A DNA stretch of 64,000 nucleotides from Spirochaetia bacterium (GTDB lineage: Bacteria > Spirochaetota > Spirochaetia > UBA9216): positions 1,984,001 to 2,048,000 of the forward strand of contig OY776510.1 in the NCBI GenBank assembly GCA_963675665.1, written 5' to 3'. Under the pieces are notes generated by a model that had not been told where the DNA came from, searched no databases, and saw only the letters and a program-made list of their open reading frames with translations. A program made the position numbers and the translations under genes. The stretch's first letter is position 1. The number at the start of each line of letters is the position of its first letter. Below, piece after piece: positions 59,348 to 64,000 of the stretch.

Positions 59348-61735
59348 ATGACCAAAAGGATACAGAAAGAGCGCGACAGGATTCTCAAGACAAAACCGGG
59401 AATCTGTACCGAAAGAGCGTTTTTTTATACTGAAGCATATAAAAAGTATGAAAGCAGCCCGGTAATCATCAGGAGAGCGTATGCTTTGAAAGATACTCTT
59501 GAAAGGATGAGCATCAGAATAGATCATGATGAACTGATAGTCGGAAACCATTCTTCAGCTGTATATTCAGCCCCGATCTTTCCGGAGTATGCTGTTGAAT
59601 GGATAAAAAACGAAATCGATGATTTTGAAAATCGTACTGGTGATGCATTTTATCCTGATGAAAAAACAAAAAAGGATTTACTGGAAATCTGCGAATACTG
59701 GACGAATAAAACCACCCTTGATAAGGGACATGCCCTAATGACTGAAGATTTGCAGGCAATCCATGAGTCGGGAATAATCCGGGCGGAGGGTAATCTGACT
59801 TCCGGTGATGCACATATTGCTGCAAATTTCAGAAAGATCCTGGACAAGGGGCTTGGCTGGTTTATTGAGCTCACCGGTAAAAAGCTGGAGCAGACAGGAT
59901 TTGTTACTGAAGAAGAAATAAAGAAACGGCAGTTCTACAGTTCTGTTCTGATAAGTCTGAAAGCTTTCAGTACCTTTATTACCAGGTTTGCCGTTTTGGC
60001 TGCCGAATTGAAAGAATCCGAGGCTGATTCAGCCAGAAAAGCCGAGCTGGAGCAGATTGAAAATATATGTGGACAGATTGCATGGGAAAAACCCCGGACC
60101 TTCTACCAGGCATTACAACTCAGCTACTTTGTCCAGCTTGTGCTTCAGATTGAAAGCAACGGGCATTCCCTGTCGCTTGGCAGGCTTGATCAGTATCTTT
60201 ATCCTTTTTACAGGGCGGACAGGGATAGCGGTCTGATAACCGATGAGTTCGTGATGGAGCTGCTGGAAAGTACCTGGCTGAAGCTTGTAAGTATGAAGAA
60301 AATCAGGTCATGGTCGCATACCAGGTTTTCAGCAGGCGGTCCGCTTTATCAGAATGTGACAATCGGGGGCCAGTTGAGAGACGGCAGCGATGCCGTAAAT
60401 GAATTGTCTTATCTCATCCTCCGCTCCGTAGGCGAAACAAAACTGACCCAGCCTAATCTTACAGTAAGATTTCATCCGGGAATCAGCAATGACTTTTTAA
60501 TGGAATGTGTAAAGGTTATCCAGCTTGGTTTCGGAATGCCGGCATTCAACAATGATTCTATTGTTATTCCGGCCTTTCATAACCTTGGGGTTGAAGAGGA
60601 AGATGCCTGGGACTATTCGGCAATCGGCTGTATCGAGGTTGCGGTCCCCGGAAAATGGGGATACCGCTGTACAGGAAAGCATTTCTTGAATTTCATGAGG
60701 GTTTTTCTTGCCGCGCTGAACGACGGAACTGATCCGGTAAGCGGCAGGCAGTTTCATAAAGGAAACGGGAAACTGACTGAATTTACCGATTTTTCACAGG
60801 TGCTTGAAGCCTGGGACCGGCAGGTGAGGTTTTATGCGAAAGCCGGTATTGCCATTGATACCGCTATAGATATTGTTCTGCGTGATGAAGCGCCTGATCT
60901 TCTCTGTTCCGCATTTACCGACGACTGTATTGAACGCGGGCTTACCGTTCACGAGGGCGGATGCAAGTACGATTTCGTTTCGGGGTTGCAGGTGGGTATT
61001 GCAAACCTGGCTAACTCTCTTGCAGCGGTAAAAAAGCTTGTTTTTGATGAAAAACGGATTACGGCCGACGAACTGCTTGGCGCCATGAATAATGATTTTT
61101 CAGGAACTGAGGGTGAAAAACTGCGGCAGGTTCTGCTGAATTTTGCTCCGAAATACGGAAATGATGATGATTATGTAGACAAACTGCTTGTGCAGGCGTA
61201 TGCATCGTATCTTGACGAGATAGAAAAATACCCCACCATTCGGGAAGGAAGCGGCGCTATCGGCTGCCGCTATTACGGCGGCACCTCAAGCATTTCGGGT
61301 AATGTCCCCGCCGGGGCGGTTGTTCCGGCAACGCCGGACGGCAGAAAAGCCTGGAAACCCCTTGCAGAAGGCGCATCCCCGTCGGCCGGATCGGATTTAA
61401 ACGGCCCGACTGCTGTTATGCGGAGTATCAGCAAGCTTCCTACCGAGAAAATTCTAGGCGGGGTTCTGCTGAATCAAAAACTGATTCCTTCTGTGCTTGA
61501 AACGGAAAGCAACAAGGAAAAACTTGCCTCAATGCTTCACGCATTTTTCGATAATATGAATGGCTGGCATATTCAGTACAATATTGTTGACCGGGAAACT
61601 CTGCTTGAAGCACAGGAAAAGCCTGAAGAATATCACGATCTGGTAGTCAGGGTAGCCGGGTACTCGGCATTTTATACCAACCTGTCGACTGAAACACAGA
61701 ATGATATTATTGCAAGGACTGAACAGACGATATAA
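59348..61735 (+). CDS. Glycyl radical enzyme, YbiW/PflF-like
   Basis: APIFPEY, EGNLTSGDAH, ESNGHS, SAIGCIE (Cys loop), TSSISGN, RVAGYS (Gly loop). Confidence 0.9.
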   Translation: MTKRIQKERDRILKTKPGICTERAFFYTEAYKKYESSPVIIRRAYALKDTLERMSIRIDHDELIVGNHSSAVYSAPIFPEYAVEWIKNEIDDFENRTGDAFYPDEKTKKDLLEICEYWTNKTTLDKGHALMTEDLQAIHESGIIRAEGNLTSGDAHIAANFRKILDKGLGWFIELTGKKLEQTGFVTEEEIKKRQFYSSVLISLKAFSTFITRFAVLAAELKESEADSARKAELEQIENICGQIAWEKPRTFYQALQLSYFVQLVLQIESNGHSLSLGRLDQYLYPFYRADRDSGLITDEFVMELLESTWLKLVSMKKIRSWSHTRFSAGGPLYQNVTIGGQLRDGSDAVNELSYLILRSVGETKLTQPNLTVRFHPGISNDFLMECVKVIQLGFGMPAFNNDSIVIPAFHNLGVEEEDAWDYSAIGCIEVAVPGKWGYRCTGKHFLNFMRVFLAALNDGTDPVSGRQFHKGNGKLTEFTDFSQVLEAWDRQVRFYAKAGIAIDTAIDIVLRDEAPDLLCSAFTDDCIERGLTVHEGGCKYDFVSGLQVGIANLANSLAAVKKLVFDEKRITADELLGAMNNDFSGTEGEKLRQVLLNFAPKYGNDDDYVDKLLVQAYASYLDEIEKYPTIREGSGAIGCRYYGGTSSISGNVPAGAVVPATPDGRKAWKPLAEGASPSAGSDLNGPTAVMRSISKLPTEKILGGVLLNQKLIPSVLETESNKEKLASMLHAFFDNMNGWHIQYNIVDRETLLEAQEKPEEYHDLVVRVAGYSAFYTNLSTETQNDIIARTEQTI

Positions 61736-62218: not shown

Positions 62219-62307
62219 GTTTGTTCTCCTTATAGGGCACCTCTGATATGATGTGACCCATGTCAAGTTAAAATATCCAGGTTTTATCTATAAGATCCCC
62301 CCCCTGT

Positions 62308-62506
62308 CCAGGACAGGAAGAAAGATAGAACAACGTTTATGCGGCGATAGACCACTCTGATATTCGCGGATTGGTTACCGCAGGTCAATGGGATCGTCGG
62401 GAGCTGCCTCTGTCTAAAACCGAGGATCAATATTATTATTGCCTCATAGAGGTGCCGAGGGTTCTCCTTTATCACTGTTGTTGTTCTATCCATCCTTCTG
62501 TCCTGG
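62308..62506 (-). ncRNA. Predicted bridge RNA / seekRNA of the IS1111 element
   Basis: Long imperfect closing stem (62480-62506 with 62308-62334) enclosing guides GGCACCTCTA, GTTTTAGA, CATTGACCT and ATATCAGA that match target and donor. Confidence 0.8.
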
Positions 62507-62530
62507 TAGCTTATTAACCAACTATCGAAG

Positions 62531-63634
62531 TCATGCGACTTCTGTTCTACCTACCATCATTCCCCAAATAAATCCTGATAATTCTCTGGCAACTGCCGTA
62601 ACAGTTTTCTGAGGGCATACCCCTCTACGAATCATCCTGAAATATTTCTTACTCAACCTTCTGCCGGCTTTATCAGCATAAGCTATTGTTTCAGCAGATT
62701 GTCCTTTCCTTCTCGCTGTCAGTCGTTTCGATGGCGAATACCTTTGGTAATGCCAGCTTGATTCCACTAACAGCCGTCGTAGCCTGGAGTTGCCGGCCTT
62801 CGTAATCCCGCCAAGCTTCCGGCCCTCTCCGCTTGAGTATTCTGACGGCACAAGTCCAAGATACGCCATGAAGGATTCCGCTTTTTTAAATCTTCTGAAA
62901 TCTCCTATCTCGCATACAAATGTTAATGCTGTTAATGTCTCTATACCTTTGAAACATCGAAGCCGGGATACCCTTTCTTTATATCTGTCTTCAGCAGCAA
63001 TCTCTTCTATTTTTTCCTGCAACCGTTCAATCTTTTCCTCTAATTCCACAATCGCAAGATAATATTCTTTTAAAACTTCTTTATGCATTACCTGTTCAAA
63101 CTGCAAGTTTTTCAACCAGGTTCGATGCGCCCCTGTCCAGTACTTTTTCCCAATATCATATTTCTTCCCGTTCCTTAGCAGAAACTGTAAGAGCCTCTGT
63201 TTCTGTTTCCTCAAATCAATTTTCATATCGTTACACATCCTCATGTAATCACGAACTGATTCATCTGTGCGTGTCGGTATATTCACCGGTGTTATTTCCT
63301 GATTCCTTAATGCTCTGGCTAATTTGACTGCATCCCTCTTGTCTGTCTTTATTCGGTCTCCGGGTTTCCTCGGCAATAATGATGGTGCTGCTACGTAACA
63401 GATAATTCCCATATCTTCAAGTAATCTATAAAGTGTAAATCCTGTAGGGCCTGCTTCGTAACAACACAGAATATTTTCTCCATTCTCTTTAAGTCGCTTG
63501 AAGAATCTTTTAATATTTCCGGGTTCGTTCCTGAGCTCTCTTTCAAACTCAGGATTCTGATAATTATCTCTGAATACCGCTACTGCGATTGATTCCTTGT
63601 GGACATCCATCCCTACATAAATTACACTATTCAT
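62531..63634 (-). CDS. IS110 family recombinase/transposase (DEDD RuvC + Tnp domain)
   Basis: GMDVHK, CYEAG, KTDKRDA, GLVPSEYSSG, ITKAGN, AVAREL. Confidence 0.95.
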   Translation of the reverse strand: MNSVIYVGMDVHKESIAVAVFRDNYQNPEFERELRNEPGNIKRFFKRLKENGENILCCYEAGPTGFTLYRLLEDMGIICYVAAPSLLPRKPGDRIKTDKRDAVKLARALRNQEITPVNIPTRTDESVRDYMRMCNDMKIDLRKQKQRLLQFLLRNGKKYDIGKKYWTGAHRTWLKNLQFEQVMHKEVLKEYYLAIVELEEKIERLQEKIEEIAAEDRYKERVSRLRCFKGIETLTALTFVCEIGDFRRFKKAESFMAYLGLVPSEYSSGEGRKLGGITKAGNSRLRRLLVESSWHYQRYSPSKRLTARRKGQSAETIAYADKAGRRLSKKYFRMIRRGVCPQKTVTAVARELSGFIWGMMVGRTEVA

Positions 63635-63830
63635 AGTGGCCTCCGTTCCTTTGTATGTGGCGTGTCTGCGCTTTGCCATTAGCCATTGTGTAGGCTAATC
63701 CACGATTTTGCAAACACGGCGGTCACTTCATATTGTCTAATAACCCTAAATTGGGCTTATCAGAGGTGCCTTGGAGTTTACTTATTTCCTTATCAGTTAA
63801 TAAGTAAACATCCACAGTACGTCTAAGGAA

Positions 63831-63860
63831 GACTTCTAAAAACTGCAGTTTTTAGAAGTC
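63831..63860. repeat. Perfect 30-bp palindrome, related REP-like repeat
   Basis: GACTTCTAAAAACTGCAGTTTTTAGAAGTC. Confidence 0.8.
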
Positions 63861-64000
63861 CCCTATAATAAGGATGCATTAAAGAAGTTAAAGGTGCGCA
63901 AAAAATTGGTTTATTCGGATTTTTTTAGCATGGAGCCTATGGCAAGAGCTGTCTTTTCATACCAGGAGATGTCGGGTTTTCTTTCCGGAAGATTTCTGAA

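Follow-up and report, generated by a model that had tools for sequence, protein, structure and literature searches.

How does an insertion sequence come to stand at the same short target again and again in one genome? The question is raised by a locus near one end of a 64,000-nucleotide (nt) stretch of DNA from a Spirochaetia bacterium (GTDB lineage Spirochaetota; Spirochaetia; UBA9216), positions 1,984,001 to 2,048,000 of contig OY776510.1 in assembly GCA_963675665.1, which we call the window and whose own numbering we use. On its minus strand, at 62243..63736, lies an insertion sequence of 1494 base pairs (bp), the core dinucleotide AG being counted once, at the right end. An earlier reading of the letters of this DNA (the sequence-only reading) had proposed a complete IS1111-type RNA-guided recombinase system here, with guides that match both a repeated extragenic palindrome (REP) target and the donor junction. 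Every coordinate and word that it gave is present in the window sequence, and the protein domains, the ends and the layout of the RNA 3' of the gene bear out its general proposal. Based on the results below, we hold that this is very probably a complete and recently active IS110-family element of IS1111-type organisation, which chooses its site through its own bridge (seek) RNA. Such RNAs were described in 2024, as bridge RNAs for IS110 elements (PMC11208160) and as seekRNAs for IS1111 and IS110 elements, with reversed guide order between the two groups (PMC11187229).

Ends, core and target sites

The genome is a single 5.15-megabase (Mb) contig and holds seven copies of the element, 100% identical over 1497 bp and placed at seven different sites, together with one relative of 68% identity, which we call ISrel. 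The end bases are the same in all seven copies, and the length was taken from the motifs of the left and right ends. Read on the plus strand, the left-hand junction consists of GGCACC (62236-62241), TCT (62242-62244) and GATATG (62245-62250), and the right-hand junction of CATATTG (63729-63735), TCT (63736-63738) and AATAAC (63739-63744). The element has sub-terminal inverted repeats of 13 bp each, complementary in 12 of 13 positions. The left one (63721..63733, minus strand, sense ATATGAAGTGACC) is preceded by a 3-nt extension, ACA, and is kept in relatives down to 51% protein identity; the right one (62246..62258, minus strand, sense GGTCACATCATAT), placed from the window sequence and by comparison with relatives, is followed by C and then by the core AG. 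This makes the terminal extensions 3+3; when the core is assigned to the left end they become 5+1. The non-coding parts measure 288 nt 3' of the gene (62530 to 62243) and 102 nt 5' of it (63736 to 63635).

The sequence-only reading had arranged target and donor around a shared TCT, and here its junction words stand but its core does not. The two junctions of ISrel have only AG/CT in common, so the crossover core is the dinucleotide CT/AG, as in IS621 and ISPpu9, and not TCT; the third base is shared only because this target happens to have the same letter there as the start of the left end. AG is likewise the sole sequence common to both junctions in other relatives. We place the core at 63737..63738 for the left junction of the element, where it is the target's copy (AG on the minus strand, CT on the plus strand), and at 62243..62244 (minus strand) for the right junction, on the evidence of the same-genome copies, ISrel and the relatives.

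The argument for a guided choice of site depends on whether the other copies share the target, and they do: all seven stand at ACC-TCT-AA, where one flank reads ACC-TCT and the opposite flank AA(A/T). Six of them lie at one position in one arm of a single family of REP-like palindromic repeats of about 41 bp. The seventh lies in an unrelated site, so that the REP target claimed earlier describes six copies and not all. That this non-family site shares only AACC-TCT-AAA with the others argues that it is the guides, and not the palindrome as such, that determine recognition. The preferred target is one arm of the small palindrome family, recognized by guide pairing. At the window copy, the left arm of the interrupted palindrome occupies 62231-62244 and the rest of it 63739..63775 (plus strand), as delimited from reconstructed empty sites and from the census of the family given further below.

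Guides in the target loop

The RNA encoded 3' of the recombinase gene has two internal loops, of which the first holds two words that match the target. The 5' guide of this target loop, GGCACCTCTA (62447..62456, minus strand), consists of six variable nt, CT and A, and is complementary to the sense strand of the downstream flank together with the core. The 3' guide, GTTTTAGA (62413..62420, minus strand), consists of five variable nt, AG and A; it has the same sense as the upstream flank, the core and the first base of the left end, and is thereby complementary to the other strand of that flank. Both guides cover the core dinucleotide, and their joint footprint is about 13 bp. The match of the 5' guide with the flank of the window copy is 9 of 9 contiguous bases, the only perfect case, and in the other six copies it is 6 contiguous bases. 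For the 3' guide the best run is 8, at the copy at genome position 553743, and the other copies range from 4 to 6, the window copy having the least; here the match reads TTAGA when the first base of the left end is counted in.

A more general test of the guides was provided by the relatives of the element. Species-representative genomes gave 79 loci at 37-54% identity and metagenomes 13 at 51-74%; another 24 came from 401 genomes of the phylum of the window, where a match was present in 17 genomes, the window's own included. Across these relatives the ends and the RNA scaffold are conserved, and the words of the first loop differ in almost every one. We then compared each guide with its own flank and with all other flanks in 29 elements whose guide pairs all differ and whose downstream flank could be resolved, using one site per guide pair, leaving out rows without a resolvable right end, and scoring the longest match from the core into the flank. 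The 5' guide reached a run of at least 5 in 24 of the 29 cognate comparisons and in 35 of the 812 non-cognate ones (mean runs of 5.59 and 2.40), and the 3' guide in 11 of 19 against 23 of 342 (means of 4.89 and 3.18). For either guide, none of 20,000 permutations reached the observed mean. The earlier claim that the guides of the first loop match the target is therefore upheld well beyond the window copy.

The closest instance of this covariation is found in the same genome. ISrel (locus L008, G000:C1:4456572-4458050) is present as a single copy, in a site that reads GTCCCGT-AG-CTTTTTT in sense and is unlike the target of the seven copies. Its guides in the first loop are TAAAAAGCT and TCCGTAGA, which correspond to the reverse complement of its downstream flank plus core and to its upstream flank plus core, and its second loop and its ends are unchanged relative to the element. 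Judged from these words, ISrel shows a natural retargeting, in which a new site goes together with matching guides.

We had also suspected a single-base bulge on the target side in the 5'-guide pairings of ISrel and of loci L009, L040, L043 and L088. We dropped this idea: of 25 cognate pairs, just 2 had an extension of at least 3 past the skipped target base, and a guide of this length is too short for such a test.

Structure and conservation of the RNA

The sequence-only reading had described a long closing stem and two hairpin-split loops between 62506 and 62308. This stretch of 199 nt (62308..62506, minus strand) does fold in that way, with a closing stem of about 25 bp around the target-binding and the donor-binding loop, each of them an internal loop split by a hairpin. 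Its minimum free energy is -72.8 kcal/mol (z = -4.37), and none of 200 shuffles was as stable. Comparison with relatives gives the same picture. RNAalifold, run on 34 sequences, predicts the helices that frame both loops; in the 28 pairs of the inner helices, 98.1% of the cells are paired, against 34.5-43.7% when the partners are slid by 1-3 columns. Eleven of the 28 pairs have changed on both sides (80 cells), and the covariation score was reached by none of 500 shuffles. The closing stem could not be aligned and was therefore scored sequence by sequence: despite sequence change it is kept in 33 of 34 relatives, with a z of the 5'/3' duplex below -3 against shuffles, and the sole exception is L097, an interrupted sequence.

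A covariance model of the two loops (R1) was run on 76 further loci, which either had not matched our rigid pattern or were fetched later, and it found the RNA in 53 of them. Taking the rigid pattern (25 of 79) and R1 together, the RNA is present in 59 of the 79 loci from species-representative genomes. The loci matched by R1 include an IS1533-like locus of Leptospira (83.6 bits, E 1e-18) and ISEc45 (36.6 bits, E 4e-7), and it has no match at E<=0.01 in the loci of IS4321 and ISKpn4. The scaffold is conserved across several phyla, with the guides at fixed places in it. In Rfam 15 no family matched the element at E<=1, and the two weak matches fall outside it; in this genome we found no solo copies of the RNA beyond the eight elements.

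These results bear on the simplest alternative, that the 3' region is merely a structured untranslated region, acting as a terminator or as a stabiliser of the messenger RNA, and that the matches are due to chance or are captured remnants of targets. It can be said in its favor that one of the words of the second loop, ATATCAGA, is common in the window by itself (6 matches against 2.5 expected), and that no RNA run containing the sequence is among the 16 sequencing runs listed. However, GGCACCTCTA occurs a single time in the 64-kilobase window, against 0.05 expected, and a search for intrinsic terminators on the minus strand gave none. This alternative would not lead one to expect guides that differ in nearly every relative and still match their own flanks, from fixed places in a scaffold shared by several phyla. 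We consider it scarcely credible. The guide function is instead supported by the natural covariation of guides and flanks and by the conservation of the fold, as far as sequences can tell.

One arrangement of the RNA deserves to be mentioned for itself. In the Dehalococcoidia locus L016, and likewise in L018, L019 and L020, one transposase gene is followed by two tandem bridge-RNA modules (L016:2405-2557 and 2786-2938). The loop-1 words of the two modules differ, and in the second the 3' target guide reads like the right end of the element itself (AUAUCAGA). One insertion nested in or placed in tandem with another could account for this, as could an element with two guide RNAs.

The donor loop

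In the second loop, the sequence-only reading had seen two guides for the donor, one matching it fully and one imperfectly, and both descriptions hold. The 3' guide, ATATCAGA (62356..62363, minus strand), reads the same as the final seven bases of the right end, core included, followed by the first base of the left end, which is a match of 8 of 8 with the circle junction. The 5' guide, CATTGACCT (62382..62390, minus strand), compared with the reverse complement of the left end plus the first core base, matches in 5 of 6 positions (ATTGaC against ATTGTC). A perfect ATTGTC (6 of 6) is present in the relatives L010, L093 and L096. Across relatives, the donor 5' guide tracks positions 3-4 of the left end through three states (ATTGTC with ACAAT, ATGGTC with ACCAT, and ACTGTC with ACAGT). 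In L010 the donor 3' guide and the right end both read ATATAAG, and the right ends of L010 and of the close relatives of the element were located independently of the donor guide.

Is the second loop a guide at all? It could be that only the first loop guides, in the form of a short seekRNA of about 80-100 nt, that the recombinase itself binds the sub-terminal repeats, and that the second loop is a protein-binding scaffold. Siddiquee et al. (PMC11187229) report that the predominant RNA bound to IS1111-family transposases has 82-96 nt and contains the target matches, which would fit such a short RNA, as would the imperfect donor 5' guide. The second loop and the ends are also both strongly conserved, which leaves the evidence from donor covariation thin. 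This evidence is moreover partly circular, the right ends of most relatives having been found with the donor guide as key. In the Actinomycetota group (guide ATGTCAG) we resolved no left-end inverted repeat, and its donor covariation was not used as independent evidence. Against this stand the match of ATATCAGA with the joined ends, the joint change of guide and independently located right end in L010, and the way the donor 5' guide follows the left end. Both words of the second loop also lie in an internal loop with the geometry of the first, and Durrant et al. (PMC11208160) report donor-binding nucleotides in IS1111 bridge RNAs. Taking these together, we regard guidance by the first loop only as unlikely, and a donor loop that pairs with the joined ends as well supported by the sequences compared. 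It is less firmly supported than the target pairing, because the tally of right ends is partly circular and the Actinomycetota ends could not be resolved.

The recombinase

The gene of the recombinase (62531..63634, minus strand) encodes 367 amino acids (aa) from a start MNSVIYVGMDVHK at 63634, with a GGAGG ribosome-binding site upstream. We placed the start there because the relatives mostly have 365-368 aa, and the longer frame of 382 aa from 63679 in the list of open reading frames is probably not used. Both domains of the family are present in Pfam searches, the DEDD/RuvC-like one at the N-terminus (PF01548, E 2.7e-13) and Transposase_20 at the C-terminus (PF02371, E 3.5e-22), and the NCBIfam model NF033542, 'IS110 family RNA-guided transposase', scores 240.2 bits against a cut-off of 140. 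By these profiles the protein is classed as an IS110-family DEDD enzyme. In an alignment of 28 relatives D10, E60 and D101 are invariant and D98 is nearly so, and S268-G269 are invariant within GLVPSEYSSG, which carries the motif GL-P----S(T)G. D98 and D101 align with both D of the KTDTVDA stretch of IS621, positions that we take to be catalytic residues of that enzyme. The reading frame is intact, and all conserved catalytic positions are present.

At least 7981 of 8000 scored candidates are relatives of the protein at E<=0.001. The closest of those is 77% identical, and the closest ones are mostly on short metagenome contigs. Because of this distance the element may carry a name of its own. 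The earlier description of it as a new member of a described class is accurate for the member; in mechanism there is nothing new, the class having been described in 2024. What we have is a clean new example of that mechanism, not a new system.

Proposed cycle and recent activity

Transcription, processing, protein binding and recombination would proceed here as in the published systems. As in IS621, ISEc11 and ISPpu9, the element would excise as a circle by recombination at AG. When we joined the ends by script, they gave TTGACA, a 17-nt spacer and a -10 element GACAAT that spans the junction; the -35 half, TTGACA, lies at 62261..62266 (minus strand), where most relatives keep TTGAC. Junction promoters have been described for this family (PMC11187229; PMC12288879), and the joined ends would by analogy form a TTGACA-17-GACAAT promoter that drives both the recombinase and the RNA. 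Dimers of the recombinase, on the two loops, would then bring donor and target together in a synapse, where strand exchange at the core would be carried out by the conserved serine and the DEDD residues.

Several of our results weigh against an element guided and mobile in this way, and they should be considered together. In six of the seven copies the 5' target guide is mismatched at its seventh position, where the target has A and the guide C, and at the window copy only 4 contiguous bases of the flank, core included, match the 3' target guide. Five of the 29 relatives fail the 5'-guide test: L029 and L034, which have short runs, and L096, L104 and L105, whose loop-1 guides lack the CT/AG core and whose flanks are unlike the guides; the last three look decayed, and probably either are dead or were rearranged once inserted. 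On the donor side there are the imperfect 5' guide and the circularity of the right-end tally. A promoter scan of the minus strand of the linear copy found none, hence none for the RNA, and, as said, no RNA run listed contains the sequence. Finally, the contigs of four DNA runs contain neither a circle junction nor an empty site, and the sole joint found in them (62266 to 62337) derives from the diverged sister element ISrel.

This last point leads to the possibility that the element is a fossil, intact in appearance and no longer mobile. Suitable targets do remain vacant: using an nhmmer profile of the reconstructed empty sites, we found 11 further loci of the palindrome family at E<0.01, all unoccupied, and at least three good targets are among the vacant sites, near genome positions 386483, 2935124 and 4993752. 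A census with an 'ideal' 14-nt target built from both guides was uninformative, as its 25 occurrences with at most two mismatches are at chance level (30 expected). The genome also holds an example of decay in ISrel, which looks decayed by its sequence: the frame of its recombinase ends after 330 aa, and between its donor guide and its right end there is one mismatch. Nevertheless, an immobile remnant sits badly with seven copies identical over their whole length at seven sites, with an intact frame that keeps all the conserved catalytic positions, and with near-identical copies that have other flanks in contigs of marine metagenomes. The contigs of the DNA runs give a depth over the element about 6 times that of its flank. 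A fossil is thus very improbable in our judgment, and the sequences portray the element as intact and recently active.

The orientation of the copies is worth recording. The seven copies and ISrel (at 0.55, 2.05, 2.62, 2.82, 3.73, 4.46, 4.98 and 5.03 Mb) all share one absolute strand, although vacant targets are available on either, and the chance of finding seven of seven on the same one is about 0.016. By the skew of G against C (GC skew), replication starts near 0.8 Mb and ends near 3.5 Mb, and the copies lie on both replichores. A link of orientation to replication is ruled out, since the eight same-strand copies occupy both of them.

Relation to known elements

By its organisation the element is IS1111-type, and by its protein it belongs to a clade around IS1533 and ISEc45. 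It has the 13-bp sub-terminal repeats, the longer 3' non-coding region, the GL-P----SG motif and the top-strand guide in 5' position of the IS1111 group; Siddiquee et al. (PMC11187229) give sub-terminal repeats of usually 11-13 bp and an RNA encoded 3' of the gene, in which the match to the top strand precedes that to the bottom strand in 5' to 3' order. It departs from the group in its terminal extensions, which are 3+3 (or 5+1) and not 7 (or 6) on the left and 3 on the right, and its transposase has 367 aa against the 330-350 aa given for the group. Identity to classical members is low, at 25% over 302 aa to the transposase of IS4321 and 27% over 344 aa to that of ISKpn4. The label IS1111 holds for the organisation and for the kinship to IS1533, which Siddiquee et al. 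(PMC11187229) count as an IS1111-family member, and not for closeness to the classical members. The architecture of a bridge RNA is present as well, with a target and a donor internal loop that each hold two guides sharing the core, the donor 5' guide at 5 of 6; in Durrant et al. (PMC11208160), right-end bridge RNAs are predicted in 93.0% of the IS1111 elements of ISfinder. With six of seven insertions at one position of a REP and the seventh at a non-family site, the element also targets such palindromes.

Among the known systems closest to it is the IS1533-like element of Leptospira interrogans (L126), whose transposase is 47% identical over 362 aligned residues, the full length, and, as judged by eye, hardly differs from the IS1533 sequence in the source data of PMC11187229. 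The two elements share the 3' RNA scaffold, an AG at each junction and sub-terminal repeats, and the right end of L126 terminates in CATATCAG. L126 differs in having its own guides and target, and of the core its 5' target guide includes just the first base. ISEc45 (its ISfinder name), from Escherichia plasmids, has a protein 43.7% identical over 98% of the query and a homologous 3' RNA, whose 3' target guide matches its upstream flank (CACGTAG). Its scaffold is much more diverged, and the copy we examined is closely followed by an IS1414 gene, so that its right end was not resolved.

A second group for comparison is formed by ISEc11, ISKpn4, ISPa11 and ISPst6, IS1111-family elements whose seekRNA was shown experimentally in the work reported in PMC11187229. 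In common with the present element they encode the RNA 3' of the gene and have sub-terminal repeats, the GL-P----SG motif, a circle-junction promoter and a pair of overlapping guides, of which the top-strand one comes first; the extensions (7+3) and the length of the protein (330-350 aa) set these four apart. The transposases of ISKpn4 and IS4321 are moreover distant, and their loci, as said, are not matched by R1.

Among IS110 elements, IS621 (Durrant et al. 2024; Hiraizumi et al. 2024; PDB 8wt6) shares the two-loop RNA, the left and right guide around a CT core, and the DEDD plus serine recombinase. Its RNA, however, is in the left end, its guide order is reversed and its sub-terminal repeats have only 2-3 bp. 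Between the two proteins, significant alignment is limited to the C-terminal domain (E 2.2e-10, residues 195-290). ISPpu9 and ISPpu10 of Pseudomonas putida, as described in PMC12288879, resemble the element in their seven copies in REP palindromes, invariant AG recombination and circular intermediates. In contrast, they are of the IS110 group, without inverted repeats and with the RNA upstream, and that account records no junction promoter for them.

One could propose that the IS1533/ISEc45-like elements, this one included, form a distinct third lineage of bridge recombinases with features of its own, an idea that we put forward tentatively and consider rather less probable than its opposite. 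Its features may be a compact right-end RNA, both loops as simple internal loops, 3+3-bp extensions and a footprint of about 13 bp, and its scaffold may span from Spirochaetota to Acidobacteriota, Actinomycetota, Chloroflexota and plasmids of Enterobacterales. If this is true and no member has been tested at the bench, the seven-copy element would be an obvious one to try first as a new programmable recombinase.

RNA-guided IS110/IS1111 recombinases are in development as programmable tools for DNA insertion. The element adds no new principle to this field; it is a clean natural case, intact, in multiple copies, with guides that can be read directly and with a diverged sister that shows natural retargeting. 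From its relatives come tabulated pairs of guides and targets, and with them a covariance model of an RNA scaffold that is widespread and yet absent from Rfam 15. For annotation, the element accounts for seven repeats of the genome and for their placement in one palindromic family.

Surroundings of the element

Next to the interrupted palindrome, at 63822-63870, the window holds a second palindromic repeat family, of 34 bp and of the type GGAATCTCTAAAAACTGCAGTTTTTAGAGATTCC, which adjoins the 41-bp family. It has at least 10 more places in the genome (for example 241323, 1885874 and 4557417), and the two families often occur together in larger composite repeats. It also gave a spurious weak match to a microRNA in Rfam.

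On the other side, a DUF3795 gene (PF12675; 61772-62219, minus strand) has its start codon 23 nt downstream of the right end of the element (62243) and runs in the same direction. The insertion cuts this gene off from its former upstream DNA, and read-through from the element into it may be possible. Further along, the plus strand carries a frame of 795 aa at 59348-61735 with a stretch RVAGYSAF at its end, which we take to resemble the glycine-radical motif of pyruvate formate-lyase-like enzymes.

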